In this document: positions 2,606 through 15,910 of the stretch, piece after piece
Layout: the number at the start of each line of letters is the position of its first letter
Numbering within the stretch: position 1 is the first letter of the stretch
Origin: a virus
DNA length: 15,910 bases
UHGV virus genome: UHGV-0065555
Strand: one strand, 5' to 3'
The notes under the pieces: model-generated
Database searches by the model: none
Told to the model about the DNA's origin: nothing
What the model saw: the letters and a program-made list of their open reading frames with translations, nothing else
Position numbers and translations under genes: made by a program

Positions 2606-3667
2606 TTAATGCTCTGCCGCCAAAGTGCCGCCATCATCAACTGTCACCGGTTTCTCCATTACGTATGCTGACCATTCAGGAGAATAGAATGGTTGCAAAA
2701 ATTTAGAAAATTGTTCTGTATCAAATTTAATTTCACCAATGTACAAGTAGTTATATATATTACTGTAGTTTTGAAGCTGAAATCCGTAAGCTAGTTTTAA
2801 TATCTTTTTAGATAGATAAAATGCAGCCTCAAGTGATTCGGCTAACATTGATTCTGTGGGGGTGAACGTTCTTATTTTAGTGCCGTTGATTTTTAACTCT
2901 ATATAGGCTATTGAGATACAATCTACGCATAAAGTATCTAATAATTTAGCTATGTTATATGAAATTGTATTTAATCTGGTAAGGTGATCTTCTGCATTTG
3001 AATGGGGTGTAACCTTATCTTTTGATAAGTTATTATTAATGGTATCTAGGATTGACAATATACTTTTTTTAAAGTTCTCGTCTGGTGAATAATTGGATGT
3101 GATATCCATTGACGATTCTGTATATATATTGGAATATAATAAGTATGGGTTTGAGATTTTAATTTCATGAGTTGTTAGTATTTTAATTTTGTTGCTATCA
3201 TTGTAATTATAATATTTTGATGCGTCATCTACAAAGCTTTGCATCGTAAAGCTTGATATTTCTTTAATTTTATCTACGAAATTTTTCTCATGAGCAAAAT
3301 GTCTATCGATTGCATTTTTGATTTCAGATGAATTAATTTGTGCTTCGGTTTGTATCGTTCTGTGAATGTTATTTACTATGGAAGCTAATGGTACAGAACT
3401 TGCGAGTATCAATAATGGGAATTTGCTTATCTCATAGAATCTGGCATATCCGTGAGCAGAAAGAACAGGTATTTTACCAAACCATGCAAATGCTCCAAAA
3501 TAAATGAATGACAGCAGTGGTACTGCAATTGAAATCCAAAATAATTTCTGTTGAAATAAATTTCTTTTATCGAGAATGTACCACTTTTTATATATTGATA
3601 CAAACGCAAAAAGAATAATTGCCAAAATATACACAATAATTCCAGTAAAGCTAGTATTAATGTTCAT
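2606..3667 (-). CDS. AT-rich predicted membrane protein (moron) between int and att; function unknown
   Basis: 353 aa; two to three N-terminal hydrophobic helices (FTGIIVYILAIILFAFVSIY, LFWISIAVPLLSFIYFGAFAWF) then an N/K/I/Y-rich soluble region. Very AT-rich versus neighbours. Its ATG overlaps the int stop (ATGA on the minus strand). Confidence 0.55.
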   Translation of the reverse strand: MNINTSFTGIIVYILAIILFAFVSIYKKWYILDKRNLFQQKLFWISIAVPLLSFIYFGAFAWFGKIPVLSAHGYARFYEISKFPLLILASSVPLASIVNNIHRTIQTEAQINSSEIKNAIDRHFAHEKNFVDKIKEISSFTMQSFVDDASKYYNYNDSNKIKILTTHEIKISNPYLLYSNIYTESSMDITSNYSPDENFKKSILSILDTINNNLSKDKVTPHSNAEDHLTRLNTISYNIAKLLDTLCVDCISIAYIELKINGTKIRTFTPTESMLAESLEAAFYLSKKILKLAYGFQLQNYSNIYNYLYIGEIKFDTEQFSKFLQPFYSPEWSAYVMEKPVTVDDGGTLAAEH

Positions 3668-4686
3668 ATAATATTTAAATTAAATAGTGGGTTTTTAGTT
3701 ACTGCATCTTCAAGATGCTCTGGTGAAAAATGGGCATAAACCATAGTCATCTTAATATCTGAATGCCCTAAAATATCCCTCAAAACGAGTATGTTTCCGC
3801 CATTCATCATGAAGTGACTGGCGAATGTGTGGCGCAGTACATGGGTGCATTGGCCTTCTGGCAGCTCAATACCCGCGCGTTTAACCGCCCGCTCAAAGGC
3901 TTTTCTACATGGAGTGAATAGCTTCCCTCTGTTTTTGGGGAGTTCATCATACAGATCCTGAGATATCGGCACAGTACGGTTTTTCTTGCCTTTTGTTTTT
4001 GTATAAGTAATTCGGTATTTCGATATTTGATGGCCCTGCAGATTTTCGGCTTCACTCCACCGTGCGCCAGTAGCTAGGCATATTTTTGCAATCATTAGTA
4101 AGCTAGGGCTTTGAGATTCAGCACATGCTGCCAACAGGCGCTTGATTTCGTCCGTGGAAAGAAAAGCCAGCTCACCTTCGGCAATTTTGAAGGTCGGAAG
4201 TCCTGCCAGCGGGTTTGGTGCTGACCAGTGTCCTAGTTTTTTTAATGTACCGAACACAGATGATAGATTGCGCTGTTCAAGGTTTACCGTGCGGGGCTTA
4301 ACGGGCGACATAAGCGTGCCATCTTCATTTCGTATTTCACCTTTTAACCGTGCTTCGCGGTATTTTGTAAAGTCACCAGCTGTCAGTTCTGAGGCGATGG
4401 GATCGCCTAGACCATTACAGATAATTCTAAGTTTCGCCATGAGGCGCTTGGGGTCTGCGAGTGTTTGACCATACAGGGAATACCAAAGCTCAATTAATTC
4501 TGATAGGCGTCGCCGATCATCCTTTTCACCCAACCACGGTTTTTTATTCACTTCTTCCATTGTGAAGCTTTCAAACGCAATGGCTTCGCCTTTCGTGGCA
4601 AATTGCTTACGCACGCGCTTGCCATTGCGTCCATTGGGATAGCACTCACACAACCATTTTCCGTTCGGCTGTTTTCTGATGGTCAT
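3664..4686 (-). CDS. int: Tyrosine recombinase / integrase, P2 family
   Basis: 340 aa; N-terminus MTIRKQPNGKW...YPNGRNGKRVRKQF and C-terminal catalytic region ...ATGARWSEA...HVLRHTFASHFMMNGG...LGHSDIKMTMVYAHF closely resemble P2 Int as I recall it (R, H-x-x-R and Y motifs present). Confidence 0.9.
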   Translation of the reverse strand: MTIRKQPNGKWLCECYPNGRNGKRVRKQFATKGEAIAFESFTMEEVNKKPWLGEKDDRRRLSELIELWYSLYGQTLADPKRLMAKLRIICNGLGDPIASELTAGDFTKYREARLKGEIRNEDGTLMSPVKPRTVNLEQRNLSSVFGTLKKLGHWSAPNPLAGLPTFKIAEGELAFLSTDEIKRLLAACAESQSPSLLMIAKICLATGARWSEAENLQGHQISKYRITYTKTKGKKNRTVPISQDLYDELPKNRGKLFTPCRKAFERAVKRAGIELPEGQCTHVLRHTFASHFMMNGGNILVLRDILGHSDIKMTMVYAHFSPEHLEDAVTKNPLFNLNII

Positions 4687-4687
4687 A

Positions 4688-5320
4688 TCAAAGGCTCTTA
4701 ATGATTTTCAGTGCGCGGCCTACTACCTCAATGTCATCCAGACCGCACTCAAACGATGAATCATCCTGATGCACTACTAATTTGTTTCCCGGGAGTCGAG
4801 TCAATTTAACGATGCTTTTTATCCCGTCGATATCGACTAACCACATACCATTTACTGGTGGTGTTTGGTTGCGATCTATTAAATAAGAATCACCAGAAGT
4901 AGTCACCAGCAGTAGGTTGCTTGAGTCTGAGGGGAGTATGCTGCTATCAATGATTGCTTTTCCAGCATCGACCAATAAACCACCGTTGAGAGTCGCCTTG
5001 TCAATTTCAGGAGATACTAGTTCAGAAAGAGGTACAACCTTGCTGGAGTTCACGGAATTGATATTTTTTTTAGGTTCAATGTTTGGACCTGGCTCCCCCT
5101 GTCCGGTGGTTAGCCACAGTAAAGAAACTCCTGTTTCCAAGGCGCACTGAATCACCCACTCTGCAGGAAAACTATCTCTTAAGTATCTGTTTGCCATGGT
5201 GCTTTTTGATGCGCCTAAGTGATCGCAAAGTTGCTGTCTGGACTTGAAATCATAGGCTGCCATTAGTCTATGGATAGCCTCTCTTCCCCCTGTATTCTCT
5301 CCAACCTTTACCTGTATCAT
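4688..5320 (-). CDS. cI: CI-type immunity repressor (186-like), N-terminal HTH
   Basis: 210 aa, divergent from the Cox/Apl-like gene and adjacent to int as in 186. HTH-like segment SRQQLCDHLGASKSTMANRYL; AGGA RBS 7 nt upstream of the ATG at 5320. Identification rests on position and architecture, not on an alignment. Confidence 0.6.
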   Translation of the reverse strand: MIQVKVGENTGGREAIHRLMAAYDFKSRQQLCDHLGASKSTMANRYLRDSFPAEWVIQCALETGVSLLWLTTGQGEPGPNIEPKKNINSVNSSKVVPLSELVSPEIDKATLNGGLLVDAGKAIIDSSILPSDSSNLLLVTTSGDSYLIDRNQTPPVNGMWLVDIDGIKSIVKLTRLPGNKLVVHQDDSSFECGLDDIEVVGRALKIIKSL

Positions 5321-5714: not shown

Positions 5715-6224
5715 ATGTTTGATTATAAGATTTCCAAACACCCGCATTTTGATGAAGCCTGTAGAGCTTTTGCACTTCGTCACAATATGGCGAAGCTGGC
5801 AGAACGTGCAGGAATGAATGTCCAGACTCTGCGAAACAAACTCAACCCAGATCAACCGCATCAGCTCAATGCGCCAGATATCTGGCTACTTACCGATCTG
5901 ACGGAAGATTCAACGCTGGTAGACGGTTTTCTGGCACAGATTCACTGCCTGCCATGTGTACCGATTAATGAGGTGGCAAAAGAGAAACTGCCACATTACG
6001 TCATGAGTGCAACCGCAGAGATCGGGCGTGTTGCTGCAGGTGCGGTATCTGGCGATGTAAAAACCAGTGCAGGTCGTCGTGATGCTATCAGCAGCATTAA
6101 CTCTGTTACACGACTGATGGCGTTAGCTGCTGTTTCATTGCAGGCCCGTTTACAGGTTAATCCTGCGATGGCAAGTGCAGTTGATACTGTAACTGGCCTC
6201 GGTGCTTCATTCGGTTTGCTGTGA
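5715..6224 (+). CDS. cII: CII-type transcriptional activator (phage 186 CII-like)
   Basis: 169 aa, the same length as 186 CII, in the same position directly after apl; strong RBS AAGGGGG. Sequence similarity is from memory only. Confidence 0.7.
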   Translation: MFDYKISKHPHFDEACRAFALRHNMAKLAERAGMNVQTLRNKLNPDQPHQLNAPDIWLLTDLTEDSTLVDGFLAQIHCLPCVPINEVAKEKLPHYVMSATAEIGRVAAGAVSGDVKTSAGRRDAISSINSVTRLMALAAVSLQARLQVNPAMASAVDTVTGLGASFGLL

Positions 6225-6231
6225 GGTGCTT

Positions 6232-6432
6232 ATGCTGACGAAAGAACCATCATTTGCATCGCTGCTAGTAAAACAAAGTCCGGCAATGCACTACGGTCAC
6301 GGCTGGATCATGGGTGAGGATGGTAAACGCTGGCATCCGTGCCGTTCGCAAGATGAATTGTTGGCAGAACTATCAACGAAAAAACGGGGGAACAAATGGC
6401 TATTGAAGGCGCTGCGGCGACTGTTCCATTAA
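6232..6432 (+). CDS. Small early-operon protein, function unknown
   Basis: ATG at 6232 preceded by a GAGGTG RBS that overlaps the cII stop; the ORF-track start at 6202 is probably a non-ATG artefact. Confidence 0.45.
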   Translation: MLTKEPSFASLLVKQSPAMHYGHGWIMGEDGKRWHPCRSQDELLAELSTKKRGNKWLLKALRRLFH

Positions 6433-6737
6433 GCCCAGGTGAACGCCTGAATGGACTTAATCATATTGCGGAATTAAGGGCGAAAGTATTTGGCCTGAAT
6501 ATTGAGTCAGAGCTTGAGCGGTTTATTAAAGATATACGTGATCCACGGGATGTTAATTATGAACGAAATAAACGAGCACTGGCTGCTATATTCTTTATAG
6601 CAAAAATTCCAGCTGAACGTCATAGCATCAGCATTAATGAGCTGACCACTGACGAAAAGCGGGAGTTGATTAAAGTAATGAATCATCTTCGTGCAGTGGT
6701 GAGCTTATTTCCCAGACGGCTAGCCATGCCGAATTAA
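6396..6737 (+). CDS. Hypothetical early-operon protein
   Basis: 113 aa; ATG at 6396 with a GGGGGA RBS; overlaps the previous ORF by 37 nt. Confidence 0.45.
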   Translation: MAIEGAAATVPLSPGERLNGLNHIAELRAKVFGLNIESELERFIKDIRDPRDVNYERNKRALAAIFFIAKIPAERHSISINELTTDEKRELIKVMNHLRAVVSLFPRRLAMPN

Positions 6738-6804
6738 CCAATTAATGAAATTCATGGCGTAAACCCGCCGGGCATTCCTTTATCTAAATTCAGGAGAATT
6801 GATT

Positions 6805-7038
6805 ATGCGTAATATTGAAACCCTCTCGACTAAAACCGGACCGGATGACGCAGGACTTAATATTTTACTGACAGAGGCTCGTCTGGAAGAACGTCGGGCA
6901 AGAGCTGAAGCAATGGCAGCTCGCCTTGATAGCCTTGCGTGCCATATCACATCCCGCCAGCTAAACCACGTTGAAGCGGCTGAACTGCTGCGTGTGGCAG
7001 CTGAAGCAATCCAGAACGAAGCGCAGGAGATCCACTAA
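6805..7038 (+). CDS. Hypothetical small alpha-helical protein
   Basis: ATG at 6805 preceded by an AGGAGA RBS; the ORF-track start at 6799 is TTG. Stop overlaps the next start (TAATG). Confidence 0.5.
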   Translation: MRNIETLSTKTGPDDAGLNILLTEARLEERRARAEAMAARLDSLACHITSRQLNHVEAAELLRVAAEAIQNEAQEIH

Positions 7039-7265
7039 TGGCTGATGCAATGGATCTCGTACAGCAGCGCGTTGAAGAAGAACGCCAGCGTCATATCCGT
7101 GCTGCCCGTGCCAAAACGCCGGGCGTGTCCCGCGTGCTTTGCATTGAGTGTGAAGCGCCAATTCCGCCAGCACGCCGCCGTGCCATTCCGGGTGTGCAGC
7201 TTTGCATTACCTGTCAGGAAATCGCAGAGCTGAAAGGCAAACATTACAACGGAGGTGCTGTATGA
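7038..7265 (+). CDS. TraR/DksA-family C4 zinc-finger protein
   Basis: 75 aa with CIECEAPIP...CITCQ (Cx2C...Cx2C) after a coiled-coil-like N-terminus; position matches the TraR-like ORF of P2/186 early operons. Confidence 0.7.
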   Translation: MADAMDLVQQRVEEERQRHIRAARAKTPGVSRVLCIECEAPIPPARRRAIPGVQLCITCQEIAELKGKHYNGGAV

Positions 7266-8119
7266 GCACCATCCTGAAATGGGCGGGAAATAAAACCGCC
7301 ATTATGTCCGAACTGAAAAAGCATCTTCCTGCTGGCCCGCGACTGGTTGAACCTTTCGCGGGTTCCTGTGCAGTGATGATGGAGACGGAGTACCCCAGCT
7401 ATCTTGTTGCGGATATTAATCCTGATTTAATCAACCTCTATAAAAAGGTTGCTGCTGATTGTGAATCGTTTATATCTCGCGCCAGAGTTTTATTTGAGAT
7501 CGCAAACAGGGAGGTGGCTTATTACAACATAAGGCAGGAGTTTAATTACTCAACTGAAATTACTGATTTCATGAAAGCGGTATATTTCCTGTATCTCAAT
7601 CGTCACGGTTACCGTGGTTTATGTCGCTATAACAAGAGCGGGCATTTCAACATTCCCTACGGTAATTATAAAAATCCGTATTTCCCTGAAAAAGAAATTC
7701 GCGCATTTGCAGAAAAAGCCCAGCGAGCAACGTTTATCTGCGCCAGCTTTGATGAAACGCTGGCGATGTTGAAGGCAGGGGATGTGGTGTATTGCGATCC
7801 GCCGTATGACGGTACGTTTTCCGGCTATCACACTGATGGTTTCACTGAAGATGACCAGTATCACCTGGCATCCGTTCTTGAACATCGGTCATCAGAAGGA
7901 CATCCGGTCATTGTTTCTAACAGTGACACATCCCTGATCCGTTCGCTGTATCGCAATTTTACTCACCACTATATCAAGGTAAAACGCAGCATCGGTGTGG
8001 CAGCTGGCGAGGGTAAATCAGCAACAGAAATCATTGCTGTTTCCGGGCCGCGCTGCTGGGTGGGATTTGATTATTCGCGTGGCCTGGATAGTTCTGCCGT
8101 GTACGGAGTACGTGCATGA
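7262..8119 (+). CDS. dam: DNA N6-adenine methyltransferase, Dam/D12 class
   Basis: Start [11 protein letters not shown] at 7262 (ATGA overlap with the upstream gene). SAM-binding motif EPFAGSCAV and catalytic DPPY motif ([10 protein letters not shown]). Confidence 0.85.
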
Positions 8120-10530
8120 GCCATGCCGATATGAACAACTGCTGCGGCTTTAACGAGGCTGCCGCAGCGTTCTCATGGAACAGCCCGAAAAAGGCCATTA
8201 ACCCTTATCTGGACCCGGCGGAAGTTGCGCCGGTTTCTGCGCTTTCAAACCTGATCGCTCTGTACGCTGCCGATAACGAGCAGGAACACCTGCGCCGCGA
8301 GGCACTGAGTGATCAGGTCTGGGAGCGTTATTTCTTTAATGAATCCCGTGATCCTGTCCAGCGCGAAATGGAGCAGGATAAGCTCATTAGTCGGGCAAAG
8401 CTGGCGCATGAGCAGCAGCGTTTTAATCCAGATATGGTCATTCTGGCGGACGTCAATGCCCAGCCTTCCCATATCAGCAAGCCGCTGATGCAACGTATTG
8501 AATACTTCAGCAGCTTGGGCAGGCCAAAGGCTTATTCCCGCTATTTGCGTGAGACGATTAAGCCATGTTTGGAGCGACTGGAGCATGTACGCGACAGCCA
8601 GCTATCTGCATCTTTTCGTTTTATGGCAAGCCATGTAGGGCTGGACGACCTGCTGATTCTGCCTGAAATGAGTCAGGATCAGGTGAAACGCCTGTCTACT
8701 CTTGTCGCTGCGCATATGAGCATGTGTCTTGATGCCGCTTGTGGTGATTTGTACGCCACCGATGATGTTAAGCCAGAAGAAATCCGCAAGACATGGGAAA
8801 AGGTGGCAGCAGAAACCCTGCGACTGGATGTTATCCCGCCTGCGTTTGAGCAACTTCGTCGGAAAAGAAACCGCCGTAAACCCGTGCCCTATGAACTCAT
8901 TCCGGGTTCGCTGGCGCGTATGTTGTGCGCCGATTGGTGGTACCGGAAATTATGGAAGATGCGTTGCGAATGGCGGGAAGAGCAGTTGCGTGCTGTTTGC
9001 CTGGTCAGCAAAAAAGCATCTCCCTATGTCAGCTATGAAGCCGTGATGCATAAACGTGAGCAGCGCCGTAAGTCGCTGGAGTTTTTCCGTTCTCATGAAC
9101 TGGTGAACGAAGACGGCGACACGCTGGACATGGAGGATGTGGTAAACGCCAGCAGCAGCAACCCGGCGCATCGCCGCAATGAGATGATGGCCTGTGTTAA
9201 AGGTCTGGAGCTTATCGCAGAAATGCGCAGTGACTGTGCCGTTTTCTACACTATCACCTGTCCGTCGCGTTTCCATTCCACGCTCAATAACGGCAGACCA
9301 AACCCGACCTGGACAAACGCGACGGTAAGACAAAGCAGCGATTATCTGGTCGGCATGTTTGCTGCATTTCGTAAGGCTATGCACAAAGCCGGGTTGCGCT
9401 GGTATGGCGTGCGGGTGGCTGAACCGCATCATGACGGCACAGTTCACTGGCACCTGTTGTGTTTCATGCGCAAAAAAGACCGCCGCGCCATTACTGCATT
9501 GTTGCGTAAGTTTGCCATCCGTGAAGACCGCGAGGAGCTGGGCAATAACACGGGGCCACGCTTTAAGTCTGAGCTGATAAACCCGCGCAAAGGTACGCCA
9601 ACAAGCTACATCGCGAAATACATCAGTAAGAACATTGACGGGCGTGGTCTGGCTGGCGAGATCAGCAAGGAAACGGGTAAATCCCTGCGTGATAACGCTG
9701 AATACGTTAATGCCTGGGCGTCTCTGCATCGTGTTCAGCAATTCCGCTTCTTTGGCATTCCGGGGCGTCAGGCTTACCGTGAACTGCGATTGCTGGCTGG
9801 TCAGGCGGCAAGGCAACAGGGGGACAAAAAAGCAGGTGCGCCGGTACTGGATAACCCGCGCCTTGATGCAATCCTGGCTGCTGCTGATGCTGGTTGTTTT
9901 GCCACCTACATCATGAAGCAGGGCGGCGTACTGGTTCCCCGCAAATATCACCTCATCAGAACTGCTTATGAAATCAACGAAGAGCCGACCGCCTATGGCG
10001 ATCACGGTATTCGTATTTATGGCATCTGGTCACCCATTGCAGAGGGCAAGATCTGCACTCATGCGGTGAAGTGGAAAATGGTTCGTAAGGCCGTTGACGT
10101 TCAGGAGGCGGCAGCCGACCAGGGCGCTTGCGCCCCTTGGACTCGTGGCAATAACTGTCCCCTTGCTGAAAATTTGAACCAACAGGAGAAAGATAAATCA
10201 GCTGATGGGGACCCCAGAACGGACATTACCCGCATGGATGACAAGGTGTTGCACGATTACCTGCACAGTATGAACAAAAAGGAGCGCCGGGAATTGGCTG
10301 CAAGGTTACGTCTGGTGAAACCGAAACGGCGTAGAGACTACAAACAGCGAATTACAGACCATCAACGACAGCAGCTCGTCTATGAACTGAAATCCAGAGG
10401 ATTTGATGGCAGCGAGAAAGAGGTCGATTTACTCCTTCGCGGCGGCAGTATTCCGTCAGGAGCAGGCCTGCGTATCTTCTATCGGAACCAGCGTTTGCAG
10501 GAAGATGATAAGTGGCGGAACCTGTATTAA
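8116..10530 (+). CDS. A: Replication initiation endonuclease gpA (rolling-circle HUH nuclease)
   Basis: 804 aa; tandem-tyrosine motif YIAKYISK and histidine-rich H-x-H region (HHDGTVHWH); start overlaps the dam stop (ATGA). Size and position match P2/186 gene A. Confidence 0.85.
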
Positions 10531-10624
10531 TTACGCTGGTTAACAATTCGTGCTCTTAATAATATCAGGCATATCAGGCTGATAAGCGTAAAAAAAAACG
10601 TTTTACATCAGTAAGATTATTATA

Positions 10625-10644
10625 TACTGTAAATATAAACAGTG
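10625..10644 (+). promoter_or_regulatory. LexA (SOS) box overlapping a candidate -10 element
   Basis: TACTGTAAATATAAACAGTG fits CTGT-N8-ACAG with an AT-rich spacer; lies about 40 bp upstream of the ATG at 10686; a TTTACA -35-like hexamer sits upstream. Confidence 0.6.
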
Positions 10645-10685
10645 GTTATACATACAGTATTGCGTGTGGTGTCATAGGAGGAAAG

Positions 10686-10874
10686 ATGCAGGACTATTTT
10701 TTGGAGTCTTTGAAGCTCCAGCGCATTGATTTTTTTCTTAAGCTTGTAGCGGCTAGTGAGTGCGATGATGAAGAGAAGCGGCTTGCTATCCAGTGGGTTT
10801 CGGAGCTGACCGATGAGTTAATGGCGAAAATCCGTACTCATGAGTACAACCGTTCAATGGATCTCCCCGGTTAG
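10686..10874 (+). CDS. Small acidic protein under the putative LexA-controlled promoter
   Basis: 62 aa; AGGAGG RBS 4 nt before the ATG; followed by an imperfect hairpin at 10891-10923. Confidence 0.45.
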   Translation: MQDYFLESLKLQRIDFFLKLVAASECDDEEKRLAIQWVSELTDELMAKIRTHEYNRSMDLPG

Positions 10875-11459
10875 GCTTAGAAACGTTGCTGGCGTTAGGA
10901 CTTGATTCTGACGCTAGCAAGGTTGATCAACGAGCCATGCGAGGCGTTAGTCATGGGCAAAAAAATAGTAACTTCCAGATTTTGCTTCGTGCCAGGTATT
11001 GAGTAGTTTTATCGCCAGAGGGGCTGTTAGCGCTCAAACTACTAATGGAGCCACACCTTAGATGAGTGATTTGGCTTAAGCTATGATTATATAGTTTCGC
11101 TGTACGGCGGCCTTGCTTTTTATTGAAGCGACCAGACTGGAACAACGGCGAAAGGAGACTAACGATACGCACCAGTTTTTTGAAAAGGTACAGTTATCTA
11201 GATTGGTTGCCAATTTTCGTTGAAACCTGACATACCATTAGGTCATTGCTTTAGAAAAATTAATACTTGATGTGAGAATTGCTTCAAAACATCTAGAATT
11301 AAAGTTTCTTTACTAGTATGCTTCATCACTTGGTCGTTGGGTTGAGTGCAAAAGCTAAGGCTGATGCCCAGTACGCTATCCGCATTATTGCCAGAGAACC
11401 GATTCGAAACCGGAATCTGGCAGAGCATGGGCGCAAGTGCTGGCTTCCCAACGGCCTCG

Positions 11460-12428
11460 TTATTTATAATATGCTGACTTCAAAACCACTCGTCTTTCAA
11501 CCTGCTGTGATAGCATTACCGCGTTAGTCCAATCTTTTGGATACCTTATTTCTTCTATAACACGAATATAAGCACATACTTTATTTTTTCCCTCTCCTTT
11601 GGCATAAGTAACCTCTAGATTATTAAATTTCAATAAGTGCTCTCTTCTTTGGTAAGTAAAACAGCCGTAATCACGGACATCAGAAGAAGTAATAGCATGA
11701 GTTGAAGGAAACCGAACTAGTAAATTTCTCAAGTAGGGAATAATGTCCAAACTCGTTGCTTTGTTTTCTTCTCTGCGACTCTTTCTGAACATATGTCTCC
11801 AACCCAGCCGTGTAAGCTCGATTTTCCCAAGCACCGGAGATGTGATTTCTTTCTGTTCAGAATAACGTTTTTTAACAAACGCTCGCCGATTATTAAGTAG
11901 TGAGTTTCTTCTTCTTACATGGATTCCTTTTGCTCCAGTTTCACCTGCACGTACCATGGACATACAGCGAGCCAGGTCAAACCGTGTGGCCGGAGTGATT
12001 AAGTGATATTCTCCATAAGTTTGGTTTTTAAGGGTAGTGTTTGGATGTATATAGGCCCAAAATGCTTTACGATTAGTTCTGTCAACCCAAACGACACATA
12101 TATGGTGAGTTGTCCTTTTGGCTGCTTTTTTTGCGGCCGAATTTAATACAAAACCTTTCTCTAATAAATGACCATAAGTTGCCCCTGATTTAACTTGCGA
12201 TAATATAAGCATTCTTTCTTTTGATGCCCATGGATGTTCGAAGGATAATATTAAATCTATTTTTGAATTGTCGTCTTCCCTGGAACCCCAGTGCCCCTCT
12301 CCTCTACAAGCAAGAATGAATTGACTCATTGCATAAGATTCGGCGTCACTGCCGTTAACTGAGTTAAACTGTCTTGTTTCTAGCACAGTTGGTATTGGTC
12401 GTGATGCAAGTAAACTGAAAGATCCCAC
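11460..12428 (-). CDS. AT-rich cargo protein of unknown function, possible PD-(D/E)xK-like nuclease fold
   Basis: 322 aa; GTG start at 12428 with a GGAGAG RBS 8 nt upstream (first in-frame ATG would be at about 12329). Strongly AT-rich relative to phage core genes. N-terminal segment KIDLILSFEHPW...LILSQVK could be a degenerate D...(E/Q)xK motif, which is speculative. Basic C-terminal region. Confidence 0.55.
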   Translation of the reverse strand: MGSFSLLASRPIPTVLETRQFNSVNGSDAESYAMSQFILACRGEGHWGSREDDNSKIDLILSFEHPWASKERMLILSQVKSGATYGHLLEKGFVLNSAAKKAAKRTTHHICVVWVDRTNRKAFWAYIHPNTTLKNQTYGEYHLITPATRFDLARCMSMVRAGETGAKGIHVRRRNSLLNNRRAFVKKRYSEQKEITSPVLGKIELTRLGWRHMFRKSRREENKATSLDIIPYLRNLLVRFPSTHAITSSDVRDYGCFTYQRREHLLKFNNLEVTYAKGEGKNKVCAYIRVIEEIRYPKDWTNAVMLSQQVERRVVLKSAYYK

Positions 12429-12501
12429 TTATAGTTCTCTCCAAAAAATTGCATAATCTTGAACGCTAAAAAATAGTATACAAACTAAAGTATTTTTTCA
12501 T

Positions 12502-12720
12502 TTAATTCAATGTATTGGCTAAAATTAAGACATTTATAGCTATATGTACTAGATAACATAGCGTTGTTTTCCTTTTGAAATCTCTTCTTGTGGTAACACA
12601 ACAGTATTTACTCAAGTAGTTTGTCACTGCATGGGGAGATTTTGCTATGTCCGCGGCATCATACAGATGCGATAGATTTTCAGCATGACCTTGGGTAGCA
12701 AATCTGTAGGTATCATCCAT
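12502..12720 (-). CDS. Small hypothetical protein upstream of the 322-aa gene
   Basis: 72 aa; ATG at 12720 with a GAGGTG RBS 2-3 nt upstream; no recognisable motif; may be spurious. Confidence 0.3.
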   Translation of the reverse strand: MDDTYRFATQGHAENLSHLYDAADIAKSPHAVTNYLSKYCCVTTRRDFKRKTTLCYLVHIAINVLILANTLN

Positions 12721-12860
12721 TGCACCTCAAAGTAACTCTGGTGCATACCTATGCTGCATGAAAATGAATGATCGCTAGTGGATCGTTTAAGTCGAAGCCT
12801 GCCAGTTCTGACGAGCTTTTGCTTATGTTATGCAACTGCATGAAAACCACTACACAAAGC

Positions 12861-12890
12861 GGGCAGGCGTGGCGGGGATACGAGCGCGCG
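12861..12890. other. Candidate cos (cohesive-end) site of the prophage
   Basis: GGCGTGGCGGGGATACGAGCGCGCGCT at 12867 resembles the P2/186 cohesive-end region as I recall it (P2 GGCGAGGCGGGGAAAGCAC, 186 GGCGTGGCGGGGAAAGCAT); it lies between A and Q where cos is expected. Match is partial and from memory. Confidence 0.35.
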
Positions 12891-13036
12891 CTAAGTCATA
12901 TAAGAGTTATATATTGATTTGATTGCTGGACATGCATACAGTATCGCTCTATCATCTAATAAATCTTAGAGTATTTGGCAATGTTTGGATAAAATGGAAC
13001 CTAACTTATTCATAATCCGCTAAACAGGGATGTCAG

Positions 13037-13951
13037 ATGCCATACCAATTGGTAGAGCTTAGCCCCGTAGCTAACGATCTTGAACAGTTAGGAACCAAAG
13101 AGAAGTTTTGGTTCTATTTCTCCGATGACACTGTAAATTTGCAGTTGTTTAAGTACTCTAGGCCAGGTACTGGCGAGCATTGGTCTGAAAAGTGTGCTGC
13201 TGAGTTATGTCATTTGCTTAACATTCCACATGCTAGCTATGATTTGGCGCGATACAATGGTCGATTCGGTGTGGTGACTCAGAATATCATTCCATCTGGT
13301 TTCCGGATGGTAATGGGAAATGAAGTGCTTCACAGTTCGACATTCGATTATCCTGGGCCTTTACAAGCCGGGGAAAAGCCGGTAAGGGTCAGAGAACACA
13401 CTGTCACAAGGGTATTGGGTTGTTTGGATAGGGAATCTATCAAGCCTCCTCCGAGTGTATATGATCTAACCGGGCTAAATGCAGCAGATGTATTTTGTGG
13501 ATATTTGATGCTCGATGCACTTGTGAGTAATCAAGATCGCCATCATGAAAATTGGGCGATCATGCTTAACAATGAAACTGGTGAGCAGTTTTTGTGTCCA
13601 ACATACGATCATGCCGCTAGTTTAGGAAGGGAGATGTTAGATGATGAGCGTAACGAACGGCTTAATACTAAAGATAAAAATCGACAAATCCCATGTTTTG
13701 TAAGAAAAGCTCGCTCTGAGCTATTCAAAGCAAAAACTGATAAAAAGCCCTTGCTGACCGTTGAAGCATTTCAACATGCAGTTGAAGGGAGAGTTGCCGC
13801 TCGCGACCATTGGTTAGGTAAGTTGAGCGTTTTAACAGAAGATTCCATTACAGATGTGTTTAACCAAGTGCCTTCATCGTGTATATCCGACAGTGCACGT
13901 AGATTTGCAACGTTAATGGTAATGGAAAATCGCAGAAGGTTACTAGAATGA
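13037..13951 (+). CDS. HipA-family Ser/Thr kinase, core kinase domain only (HipT-like)
   Basis: 304 aa. Gly-rich/ATP loop LGTKEKF (HipA ..AGAQEK..); catalytic loop LVSNQDRHHENWAIM (HipA ..GATDGHAKNFSV..); Mg-binding CPTYD (HipA ..TPFYD..). Lacks the HipA N-subdomain. AGGGA RBS. Confidence 0.8.
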   Translation: MPYQLVELSPVANDLEQLGTKEKFWFYFSDDTVNLQLFKYSRPGTGEHWSEKCAAELCHLLNIPHASYDLARYNGRFGVVTQNIIPSGFRMVMGNEVLHSSTFDYPGPLQAGEKPVRVREHTVTRVLGCLDRESIKPPPSVYDLTGLNAADVFCGYLMLDALVSNQDRHHENWAIMLNNETGEQFLCPTYDHAASLGREMLDDERNERLNTKDKNRQIPCFVRKARSELFKAKTDKKPLLTVEAFQHAVEGRVAARDHWLGKLSVLTEDSITDVFNQVPSSCISDSARRFATLMVMENRRRLLE

Positions 13952-14688
13952 CTAATACAAACTCCGTTTACGTCGCATGGCAGGCACCAGATACCAGAGA
14001 CTGGCATGTTGTTGGTAACTTGCAAGAGCGCAAATCGGGGTATGTTTTCAGGTATACCAAAGGTGCTCTTAAATCTACTAAATTTACAAAGTTTAGCGGC
14101 ATGAGTGATGTTCGTGAAACTTATGTTTCGGAAGAATTGTTTCCTCTTTTTAAAAATCGCCTTTTATCACCGAGACGTCCAGAGTATCCGAGTTTCATTA
14201 AATGGCTTGGATTTGAAGAAGATAAGGTAAATCCTATCGATATTCTTGCTCGCTCGGGAGGCTTACGAAGCACTGATCAGCTGCAGATTTTCAAAAAAAT
14301 TGATGTTGATTCTGATGGTAACTTTGAGCATTTTTTCTTCTTACATGGACTTGGTTACTTAAATAGCTTAGCTAATGCTCGTGTATCTGAATTGAAACCG
14401 GGGCAAATTTTGCGTCTTTGCTTGGATCTTCAAAATGAATACGATGGGGATGCTGTTGTCGTTCGTGCAGATAAACCAGCTGAAATCGTTGGTTACTGCC
14501 CTAGGTATTTAAGTAATGATATCAAGAAGATGTTATTGGATGATCCAAAATCAATCACTTTAACGGTCGAAAAGATTAGCGATGATGCTCCTCATAACTA
14601 TCGGTTATTATGTAAATTATCAGGAGTACTAAGCCAAGCCTGTCAATCGACGCTGATTCCTCAGGATGAGTTTGAACCTATTGAGTAA
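13948..14688 (+). CDS. HipA N-subdomain-like (HipS-like) protein fused to a C-terminal HIRAN domain
   Basis: 246 aa; ATG overlaps the kinase stop (ATGA). N-terminal part aligns by eye to HipA residues about 10-100 (VGNLQERKSGYVFRY vs VGELTKLANGAHTFKY; LFPLFKNRLLSPRRPE vs FNFFDNLLPDSP; DILARSGG vs DLLSEIGRD). C-terminal part GQILRLCLDLQNEYDGDAVVVRADKPAEIVGYCPRYLSNDIKKMLL fits the HIRAN consensus. Confidence 0.7.
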   Translation: MTNTNSVYVAWQAPDTRDWHVVGNLQERKSGYVFRYTKGALKSTKFTKFSGMSDVRETYVSEELFPLFKNRLLSPRRPEYPSFIKWLGFEEDKVNPIDILARSGGLRSTDQLQIFKKIDVDSDGNFEHFFFLHGLGYLNSLANARVSELKPGQILRLCLDLQNEYDGDAVVVRADKPAEIVGYCPRYLSNDIKKMLLDDPKSITLTVEKISDDAPHNYRLLCKLSGVLSQACQSTLIPQDEFEPIE

Positions 14689-14694
14689 ATGAAG

Positions 14695-14718
14695 AAAAGC
14701 CACCAAACGGTGGCTTTT
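14695..14718. terminator. Bidirectional rho-independent terminator shared by the convergent HipS-HIRAN gene and Q
   Basis: aaaaGCCACCaaacGGTGGCtttt: perfect 6-bp GC stem flanked by an A-run and a T-run. Confidence 0.65.
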
Positions 14719-14722
14719 CTTA

Positions 14723-15760
14723 TTATGGGACTATATCTAGCGAGTAGGTATTAAACTGTATCGCCTCCTTGCCAAGCCAATCATTCATCTCCTGTAATCG
14801 CTTTTGTAGTGGCATTAGCTCATTTCGGACGAATACACGGCTTGCCTTTTCCACATCCCCAAACCCCCCAACATTATTCGGCATAATCCCCATCATTTGC
14901 GGCGGCACGCGGTGCGCTGCCATCATGTCATCCCGACTCACGTTCTTGATGTTAAGAAATTCATCCTTCGCCGCGACTTCTGACAATGGGATGATCTGAA
15001 GCCCGTCTTTTTTGCCGTTAGGTGAGTACATAAACAGGTTGCGGAAGTTGCCTGGACCTTTGGCGCTTTTCATCGCGTTGCGGAGGTTGTTCACATCCTC
15101 CTGATTCTGCGCGGCATCGGTCATGTACATGATGAAGCCTGCATGGCTGCCGTTAATGTAATACTTACGGCGGAACAACGTGGCGGACTCGTTGAGCAGG
15201 GCTGACGGAATGGCAGAAAGATAACCGGGCAGGCCGTAGATCTCCTGGTTGATATCCGGTTCCATCAGATGAAAGATGCTGCCTTTCGTGAACTGATACG
15301 GCTGCGTAGTCATGCCGTATTGCACAAACCAGTAGGTATCCAGGTCTAACCCGCGTCGGGTGTATTTTGCCAGAGCAGGCTCAAGGGCGATAACTTCACC
15401 GAAGCGGTTCGTGCGTTTCTCCAGGTAGGCGTTACCAAATACCAGATAGTCCTGCACAAAACGTGAAAAAGCCTGCTGGCTGAGCAGCGGGTGGGGGATG
15501 TAGGTACTGGTCAGAATGTTGCATTTCACCGCAATTGGTGAACTGTGATGCACGGCGGCGCGGAAGGTGCGCGCCAGTCCGTCAAAGCTTACTGGCGGCT
15601 CATACCAGCGATCTGTCTGTACGCATTCCACATAGTCCAGTAGTTCGCGGCGGTCCAGAACAGGAACGGGATCACCGAAGCTGAATGCTTCGGCTGTAGT
15701 TTGACTTTTATGCTGGATCTGGTTCGTCGACGCAGCGCGGTTCTTCTTACTCTTTCCCAT
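14723..15760 (-). CDS. Q: Portal (capsid vertex) protein gpQ
   Basis: About 345 aa on the minus strand next to the cos region, as for P2 Q; real ATG at 15758-15760 (the ORF-track start at 15763 is TTG); start overlaps the stop of the upstream terminase gene. Confidence 0.8.
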   Translation of the reverse strand: MGKSKKNRAASTNQIQHKSQTTAEAFSFGDPVPVLDRRELLDYVECVQTDRWYEPPVSFDGLARTFRAAVHHSSPIAVKCNILTSTYIPHPLLSQQAFSRFVQDYLVFGNAYLEKRTNRFGEVIALEPALAKYTRRGLDLDTYWFVQYGMTTQPYQFTKGSIFHLMEPDINQEIYGLPGYLSAIPSALLNESATLFRRKYYINGSHAGFIMYMTDAAQNQEDVNNLRNAMKSAKGPGNFRNLFMYSPNGKKDGLQIIPLSEVAAKDEFLNIKNVSRDDMMAAHRVPPQMMGIMPNNVGGFGDVEKASRVFVRNELMPLQKRLQEMNDWLGKEAIQFNTYSLDIVP

Positions 15761-15910
15761 CAAAAAATCTCCACAATATTACTGGTATTGGCGGACTCGC
15801 CCTGCAGTGGTTCGTTAAACAGTGCGTGCATTGTTGCCCAGGCCAGATCGGCGTGGCTGGCTTCTTCGCTGCGGCTGGCTTCATAGGTTGGGCGGTTGCC
15901 ACTGGCGGTG
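15760..15910 (-). CDS. P: Terminase ATPase subunit gpP, 3' end only (5' end outside the window)
   Basis: Minus-strand frame open from the window edge to a TGA at 15760-15762 that overlaps the Q start (TGATG). Call rests on the conserved P-Q order of P2-like phages. Confidence 0.5.
   Translation of the reverse strand, partial: TASGNRPTYEASRSEEASHADLAWATMHALFNEPLQGESANTSNIVEIF

Follow-up and report, generated by a model that had tools for sequence, protein, structure and literature searches.

The segment between positions 12740 and 12892 of the window (the whole 15,910-nt stretch of the virus genome UHGV-0065555 that was analysed) is, by positional homology, very probably the cos site of a Fels-2/RE-2010-like phage of the P2 family. 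As the preliminary description of this DNA had proposed, the site divides the accessory DNA into two loci, which relatives vary without detectable linkage, and the orientation given there also holds: a gene of 322 codons lies on the right-end (old/tin) side, while a HipA-like module occupies the left end, between cos and Q. The surrounding features of the window are as follows.

78-2315, + strand: host autotransporter gene ypjA/ehaD
about 2475-2497: start of phage homology, the attachment junction
2606-3667, - strand: 353-aa ORF without assigned function
3664-4686, - strand: integrase
4688-5320, - strand: CI repressor
5715-8119, + strand: CII, Fil, DUF5347, TraR-like protein and Dam methylase
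8116-10530, + strand: replication endonuclease gpA (Pfam Phage_GPA, E=1e-126)
10686-10874, + strand: conserved 62-aa ORF (phrog_698, E=1e-36)
14723-15763, - strand: portal protein gene, homologue of P2 Q (Pfam Phage_portal, E=4e-19)

Profile and homology searches show that the window covers the left part of an E. coli prophage of P2-like type. Judged by these homologies, the prophage is a Fels-2/RE-2010-like member of the P2 family (Peduoviridae) adjoining ypjA, and Klebsiella, Salmonella and Escherichia phages of Fels-2/RE-2010/Cartapus type are its nearest matches among deposited phages. No tRNA was found at the attachment site within the window. For comparison, 160 loci were anchored on the portal protein, taking the best 80 portal matches per query, so that the loci are phylogenetically non-independent. 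On its left, the right-end locus is bounded by the conserved gpA together with the 62-aa ORF (8116-10874, + strand), as homology breakpoints show; the left-end locus is bounded on its right by the portal gene, likewise conserved and 93-100% identical to the portals in the viral-contig loci L093-L172. The order gpA (+ strand), cos at 12866 and portal (- strand), with the portal gene transcribed towards cos, is kept in 110 related loci. A third cargo position is occupied by the 353-aa ORF (2606-3667, - strand) between the prophage/host junction and the integrase gene. This ORF is without a Pfam or PADLOC match; relatives carry other genes at the same position, e.g., a RES-domain protein in Cartapus, and the int-att hotspot accounts for ~3% of P2 defence systems (PMC13586616).

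The elements of the site itself are listed here by position.

12740-12865, + strand: right-end arm of cos, probable terminase recognition region (conservation and TGCAT motifs)
12837-12891, + strand: 55-bp cos core, -29 to +26 around the top-strand nick, common to the P2 family and satellite P4
12866-12884, + strand: predicted 19-nt cohesive-end sequence (equivalent of cosN), GGCGTGGCGGGGATACGAG, from base-for-base alignment with the annotated ends of 186, P2 and P4
12885-12892, + strand: conserved CGCGCGC(T), the last kept bases before the left-end cargo, following the 19-mer in most related loci

The motif GGCGTGGCGGGGA occurs a single time on both strands of the window, at 12866-12878, and in 0 of 200 dinucleotide-preserving shuffles of it. 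This 13-mer forms the start of the 19-mer, which is followed by CGCGCGCT (12885-12892). Its likeness to the P2/186 cohesive end had been remarked on for the first 13 nt, and this stands in full for 186, whose annotated cohesive end (GGCGTGGCGGGGAAAGCAT, NC_001317 1-19) begins with the identical 13 nt, while the annotated end of P2 (GGCGAGGCGGGGAAAGCAC, NC_001895 1-19) differs from the window there at one base. The GCGCGCT previously said to echo P2 does so as part of CGCGCGCT, whose counterpart is TGCGCGCT in P2 and CGCGCGCA in P4. The interval first reported for the site opens 5 nt too early, at 12861, within a conserved GCGGGCA that precedes the predicted cut. Over its full length the 19-mer is identical to 186 at 15/19 positions and to P2 and P4 at 14/19 each; positions 14, 16, 17 and 19, all in the last 6 nt, differ from 186. 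The 3' third of the cohesive end evidently varies among clades and the first 12 nt are fixed. A third variant of the cohesive end, GGCGAGGCGGGGATAGCAC, which is intermediate between the P2 type and the window type, was observed in 26 of 79 186-type portal loci (L256-L335, best 80 portal matches). Searching both strands of the window for a second cos candidate, defined as the P2/186 19-mer with up to 3 mismatches or as GGCG.GGCGGGG, returned only the site at 12866.

Alignment to the genome termini places the motif at the position of cos in 186, P2, P4 and SEN8, which bears out its identification, and the window end is homologous to the P2-family cohesive end GGCG(A/T)GGCGGGGAAAGCA(C/T). Across the circularised junctions the 55-bp core aligns without gaps and is identical at 43/55 positions to 186, 41/55 to P2, 44/55 to P4 and 54/55 to SEN8; the same block is identical at 52/55 positions between P2 and its satellite P4. 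The concept of a 55-bp core of the P2-family cos goes back to Ziermann & Calendar 1990, as cited in PMC5694545, and the putative boundaries at 12837 and 12891 are drawn from the P2-P4 alignment. The SEN8 record (NC_047753) ends in ...AAAGCGGGCA, the homologue of 12865, and starts with GGCGTGGCGGGGATACGAGCGCGCGC in an annotated cos; its first 26 nt are identical to the window from 12866, i.e., the 19-mer plus CGCGCGC. Positions 1-59 of Cartapus (NC_070909), annotated as a ‘putative cos site’, align to 12838-12892 of the window. SEN8, EtG, L-413C and other records start or end at the homologous base, and since they were perhaps oriented by homology, we excluded them as independent proof. The cos of SEN8 was ‘identified by annotation’ (SEN8 genome announcement); our literature search found no experimental end mapping of the ATACGAG variant and encountered the 19-mer only in that announcement. 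In the 110 related loci (best 80 portal matches per query), the interval from the portal stop to the gpA end contains exactly one GGCG.GGCGGGG, and the 19-mer is identical in 94 of them.

It is sound to expect, as had been suggested, that both accessory modules are packaged, since both loci lie inside the prophage (junction at 2475-2497) and an apparently intact prophage in E. coli 442/2 (L337; NZ_CP076282, around 2.89-2.92 Mb) is 100% identical over 10500-14800, i.e., over the 4.3-kb region that holds them. The genes for both terminase subunits, portal, capsid, lysis and tail are intact in the 442/2 prophage, and no pseudogenes occur from int to the tape-measure gene; the terminase genes (homologues of gpP and gpM) lie outside the window, and their presence and intactness were read from 442/2. 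Beyond the window, at L337 32614-33600, the same prophage has a further cargo slot within its late genes, where a DUF6602-domain gene inserted on the opposite strand separates the virion morphogenesis gene from baseplate gene V. A different state is found in F719 (L336, NZ_OY754392), one of four E. coli prophages that carry the region at an identity of at least 99.6%. At 39522-41956 of this locus a tail protein gene without its C-terminus abuts a tape-measure gene without its N-terminus, and no gene for sheath, tube or gpE is present; this copy is therefore probably tail-defective. The prophage copy of the window could likewise be defective, and the cos site, though genuine by descent, could be functionally dead in a cryptic prophage from which neither cargo is now packaged or moved. 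We consider this unlikely: the fusion of a truncated tail sheath to a truncated tape-measure gene in F719 would fit such decay, and the window itself ends inside the head module, but the core and the TGCAT array are complete and agree with the clade consensus, the 442/2 prophage combines an identical cos/cargo region with genes free of pseudogenes from int to the tape-measure gene, and IMG/VR contigs of 36 kb carry the same module (L093). Moreover, cutting at cos or rescue by recombination could still take place even in a prophage with a tail defect.

For a functional cos, analogy with P2 and 186 predicts that the terminase (gpM and gpP homologues) would recognise the TGCAT-rich right-end arm on the replicated circular genome and introduce nicks 19 nt apart, in the top strand 5' of 12866 and in the bottom strand after 12884. 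The product would be linear virion DNA with 5'-protruding GGCGTGGCGGGGATACGAG ends. The nick positions and the 19-nt overhang of the window variant are extrapolated from P2 and 186, because the last 6 nt have diverged and the cos of SEN8 was called by annotation. Divergence of the 3' third, with the four differences from 186 at positions 14, 16, 17 and 19 in a variant known from annotation (ATACGAG), leaves some room for a cos whose overhang length or bottom-strand nick differs from that of P2 and 186. Such an altered geometry appears quite improbable, as the spacing from GGCG.GGCGGGG to CGCGCGC is unchanged in P2, 186, P4 and the clade of the window, which points to an identical nick register.

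In the 110 related loci (best 80 portal matches per query), nothing from gpA to the portal gene is conserved except the 153-bp block 12740-12892, and the DNA on both sides of it shows background similarity. In a MAFFT alignment of 108 distinct sequences conservation extends over the 19-mer, for 126 nt beyond it to the right-end side and for ~7 nt to the left-end side. Majority-base conservation in the right-end arm of these sequences is 0.69-0.99, compared with ~0.45 outside the block; divergence sets in within ~10 nt after the 19-mer, and the background level is reached by ~12896. The arm contains TGCAT at 12742, 12755 and 12837 (offsets -124, -111 and -29), and the density of this motif on the right-end side is 3.6-5.6 per 130 nt vs. 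~0.2 in the phage background and on the left-end side. The array thus exceeds background ~15-25 times, and its offsets at -29 and at -101 to -124 are common to three clades (window, P2-type and 186-type). In addition, a direct repeat CTGCATGAAAA occurs at 12754-12764 and 12836-12846, at a spacing of 82 nt. Taken from its composition, the TGCAT-rich right-end arm is a probable terminase recognition element. The arm also holds a weakened hairpin at about 12797-12816. The clade-consensus form of this hairpin has 9 bp, GCCCGCCAG..CTGGCGGGC followed by TTTTG, whereas pairing in the window copy is disturbed by two mismatches and a wobble; hairpins of different sequence occur in 186 and P4 at roughly the same offset (-45 to -70). 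The hairpin of the arm may belong to cos or else terminate the rightward dinI transcript. That the site is unrelated to packaging, being either a G+C-rich motif arisen by chance or a terminator or operator that regulates the cargo genes, is hardly credible despite a weak terminator-like hairpin on the minus strand that overlaps 12847-12862, given that the 13-mer was recovered from none of 200 shuffles, the 55 bp are positionally homologous to three experimentally founded cos sites, and the block is conserved whichever cargo genes flank it.

On the right-end side of cos, the accessory DNA consists of the following.

10866-12739, no strand assigned: right-end cargo locus (old/tin position), ~1.87 kb, 32-47% GC (homology breakpoints and GC profile)
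11460-12428, - strand: 322-aa cargo gene of a DUF4365 (PF14280)-containing family (homologue search)
12502-12720, - strand: 72-aa ORF upstream of the 322-aa gene, coding status uncertain (mechanical ORF)

Homology to L093, L094, L097 and L019 ends at 10865-10873 and resumes at 12733-12741, and the locus between these breakpoints replaces a DinI-like gene carried by relatives. In RE-2010, SEN8, Cartapus and most E. coli relatives this DinI-like (Tum-related) gene follows the 62-aa ORF; it is absent in the window, where its place is taken by ~600 nt with only short ORFs (10866-11460) and the 322-aa gene. Because the gene is replaced here, prophages of the same type may lack an SOS modulator. The 322-aa protein itself has no Pfam, PADLOC, PHROG or NCBIfam match; its family assignment derives from 179 homologues of ~320 aa that cover 99% of the query, many of them with precomputed PF14280. 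In identical DNA, the PGAP call begins at M34 and gives 289 aa. Alignments with homologues from many Proteobacteria span 99% of the 322-aa form, an indication that translation really starts at the upstream GTG or close to it. The 72-aa ORF has no Pfam, PADLOC, PHROG or NCBIfam match, is absent from the PGAP annotation of identical DNA, and may merely be leader or promoter DNA.

The left-end side carries a compact operon with its own signals.

12893-14722, no strand assigned: left-end cargo locus, all DNA between the cos core and the portal stop, 1,830 bp, ~38-45% GC
12927-12955, + strand: sigma-70-like promoter candidate TGGACA-17-TATCAT for the left-end operon (consensus match only)
13037-13951, + strand: small HipA-like (HipI-like) kinase, 304 aa, PADLOC PDC-M03A (profile searches)
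13948-14688, + strand: HIRAN-domain protein (HipN-like putative antitoxin or sensor), 246 aa, PDC-M03B (profile searches)
14695-14718, no strand assigned: bidirectional terminator-like hairpin AAAAGCCACC-AAAC-GGTGGCTTTT separating the stop codons of the HIRAN and portal genes (read from sequence)

The promoter candidate, with 10/12 matches, has the best promoter-like score in 10500-14800. The kinase matches PDC-M03A (E=2e-122) and phrog_8728 (E=2e-184) as well as, weakly, Pfam HipA_C (E=3.6e-4, under the curated cut-off), and PGAP names it ‘HipA domain-containing protein’ in some genomes. Its gene overlaps by 4 nt with that of the HIRAN protein, for which Pfam HIRAN is found at residues 127-228 (E=1e-13) and PDC-M03B with E=3e-93. 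The known hipIN organisation comprises the HipI kinase and HipN, a HipS-like/HIRAN protein (Gerdes et al. 2021, PMC8262856). The window operon resembles it in that a ~300-aa HipA-like kinase is followed by a ~250-aa protein with a C-terminal HIRAN domain, and by the domain order given in PMC8262856 we assign the pair as hipIN-like, corresponding to the PADLOC candidate PDC-M03. Either cargo may have anti-phage activity; in the literature we found mentioning PDC-M03, no anti-phage or toxin activity was reported for it.

The left-end position had been regarded as an unusual place for cargo, an impression that does not hold for the clade of the window. The distance from cos to the portal stop, where measurable among the best 80 portal matches per query, is distributed as follows.

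Clade of the window (Fels-2/RE-2010-like), 110 loci: gap of at most 300 nt in 7, gap above 600 nt in 100
P2-Q type portal, 79 loci: gap of at most 300 nt in 77, gap above 600 nt in 2
186-W type portal, 79 loci: gap of at most 300 nt in 61, gap above 600 nt in 8

Expressed as use of the left slot, this amounts to 91% in the clade of the window vs. 3% in P2-type and 10% in 186-type loci (best 80 portal matches per query), so that left-end cargo is rare only near P2 and 186. The median gap in the clade of the window is ~1.65 kb, and that of the window itself is 1857 nt. Genes in the cos-portal interval are present also in RE-2010, SEN8, Cartapus and ST437-OXA245phi4.1. Nearly all left-slot ORFs are read from cos to the portal gene; the slot is rich in defence genes, and the ORF products include retron reverse transcriptases, AbiU, AIPR, TIR, KAP NTPase, SEFIR, PIN and SieB as well as Schlafen, Cap4 nuclease, GmrSD, DndB, DprA and DUF4145/PD-T7-4. 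A conserved terminator was considered as the right boundary of the left slot and rejected for the clade of the window, since sequence similarity is lost directly behind the portal stop and every cargo supplies its hairpin itself; 58 of 73 left-cargo clusters have a stable hairpin of their own within 48 nt of the portal stop. Cargo next to cos has been described before. The position from cosL to Q was recognised as a hotspot or ‘foreign gene’ site by Dodd & Egan 1996 (retrons Ec67/Ec86) and by Nakayama 1999 (phiCTX), both as cited in PMC5694545, and gpA-gpQ is a cos-adjacent defence hotspot that often holds more than one system (Rousset et al. 2022, PMC9122126), a finding repeated in a 2026 survey (PMC13586616).

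The two slots vary without detectable linkage. In L093, L094, L097 and L019 the left cargo stays 81-99% identical while homology at the right end breaks. Of the loci with the left cargo of the window, L095 shares its right cargo too, L093 and L019 have nothing in the right slot, and L094 and L097 hold another right cargo. The whole left and right combination is found in 4 of 5,426 complete E. coli genomes, and the same left cargo is accompanied by other right-end content in ~17 of 25 among the matches listed for these genomes. Altogether, 73 non-empty left-slot clusters and 40 non-empty right-slot clusters form 103 distinct combinations in 111 loci (best 80 portal matches per query). Among 44 pairs of loci with a common left cargo, the right-end state also agrees in 8, vs. 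5.3 +/- 2.4 expected under independence, and a count of 8 was reached in 321 of 2000 permutations; the sample consists of the best 80 portal matches per query, i.e., of non-independent loci. As the 153-bp cos block is the only DNA shared between the slots, each slot appears replaceable independently by recombination. Free reassortment across this block fits cos-driven exchange of cargo, either by cohesive-end joining of co-infecting genomes or by recombination stimulated through the terminase cut, a process on which Rousset et al. 2022 (PMC9122126) speculated. A broader generalisation, that the left slot is the main defence-gene slot in the Fels-2/RE-2010-like branch and almost unused in P2-type phages, with slots reassorting freely across the cos block, is offered here as a tentative and rather doubtful one.

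Because cos sits in the middle of the gpA-to-Q region, this region comprises two slots. The right-end slot extends from the 62-aa ORF to the cos arm and contains the DUF4365-family gene, transcribed away from cos like old/tin in P2. The left-end slot extends from cos +8 to the portal stop and contains the hipIN-like operon, with its own promoter-like site and terminator, transcribed towards the portal gene. The packaged DNA would include both slots, one at each end of the linear genome. The feature itself is an ordinary one that has already been described: the P2-family cos, the cos-adjacent hotspot and cargo between cosL and Q are all known. That clades differ in their use of the slots and that the two slots show no linkage may be mildly new, as seen in non-independent loci from the best 80 portal matches per query. 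Locating cos fixes the ends of the virion chromosome and turns the published gpA-gpQ hotspot into two separate slots at opposite ends of the packaged DNA, which is of use for the annotation of P2-like prophages, for counts of defence systems per slot, and for the design of cos plasmids or cargo swaps.

Compared with known systems, the site lies, like the cos of 186, P2 and P4, between accessory genes on the gpA side and the portal gene; it also has in common with them the GCGGGC(A/G) and (C/T)GCGCGC that flank it and the TGCAT array at the same right-end offsets. It differs from them in its last 6 nt, TACGAG instead of AAGCA(T/C), at 4-5 mismatches, and from this comparison, annealing of window-type ends to those of P2 or 186 would be imperfect. 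In P2 and 186 the core is followed by a ~170-nt spacer from cos to the terminator, whereas the window has cargo in its place. Likewise, the picture conveyed by the title of Dodd & Egan is one of a conserved terminator boundary, whereas the clade of the window shows variable DNA right up to the portal stop. SEN8, with its identical 19-mer and CGCGCGC, resembles the window also in carrying a hypothetical protein and an HNH endonuclease between cos and the portal gene, and Cartapus and RE-2010 have a DUF4145 protein and an AIPR Abi protein there, respectively; the cos of SEN8 was called by annotation and that of Cartapus is labelled putative. On both sides of cos, the cargo of SEN8, Cartapus, RE-2010 and Fels-2 (Felsduovirus, Elveevirus) is unlike that of the window. 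Finally, both window modules sit inside the gpA-gpQ hotspot, adjoin cos and are defence-like in content (PDC-M03 and the DUF4365 family), and what was published as one hotspot is here resolved into two slots around a 153-bp block.
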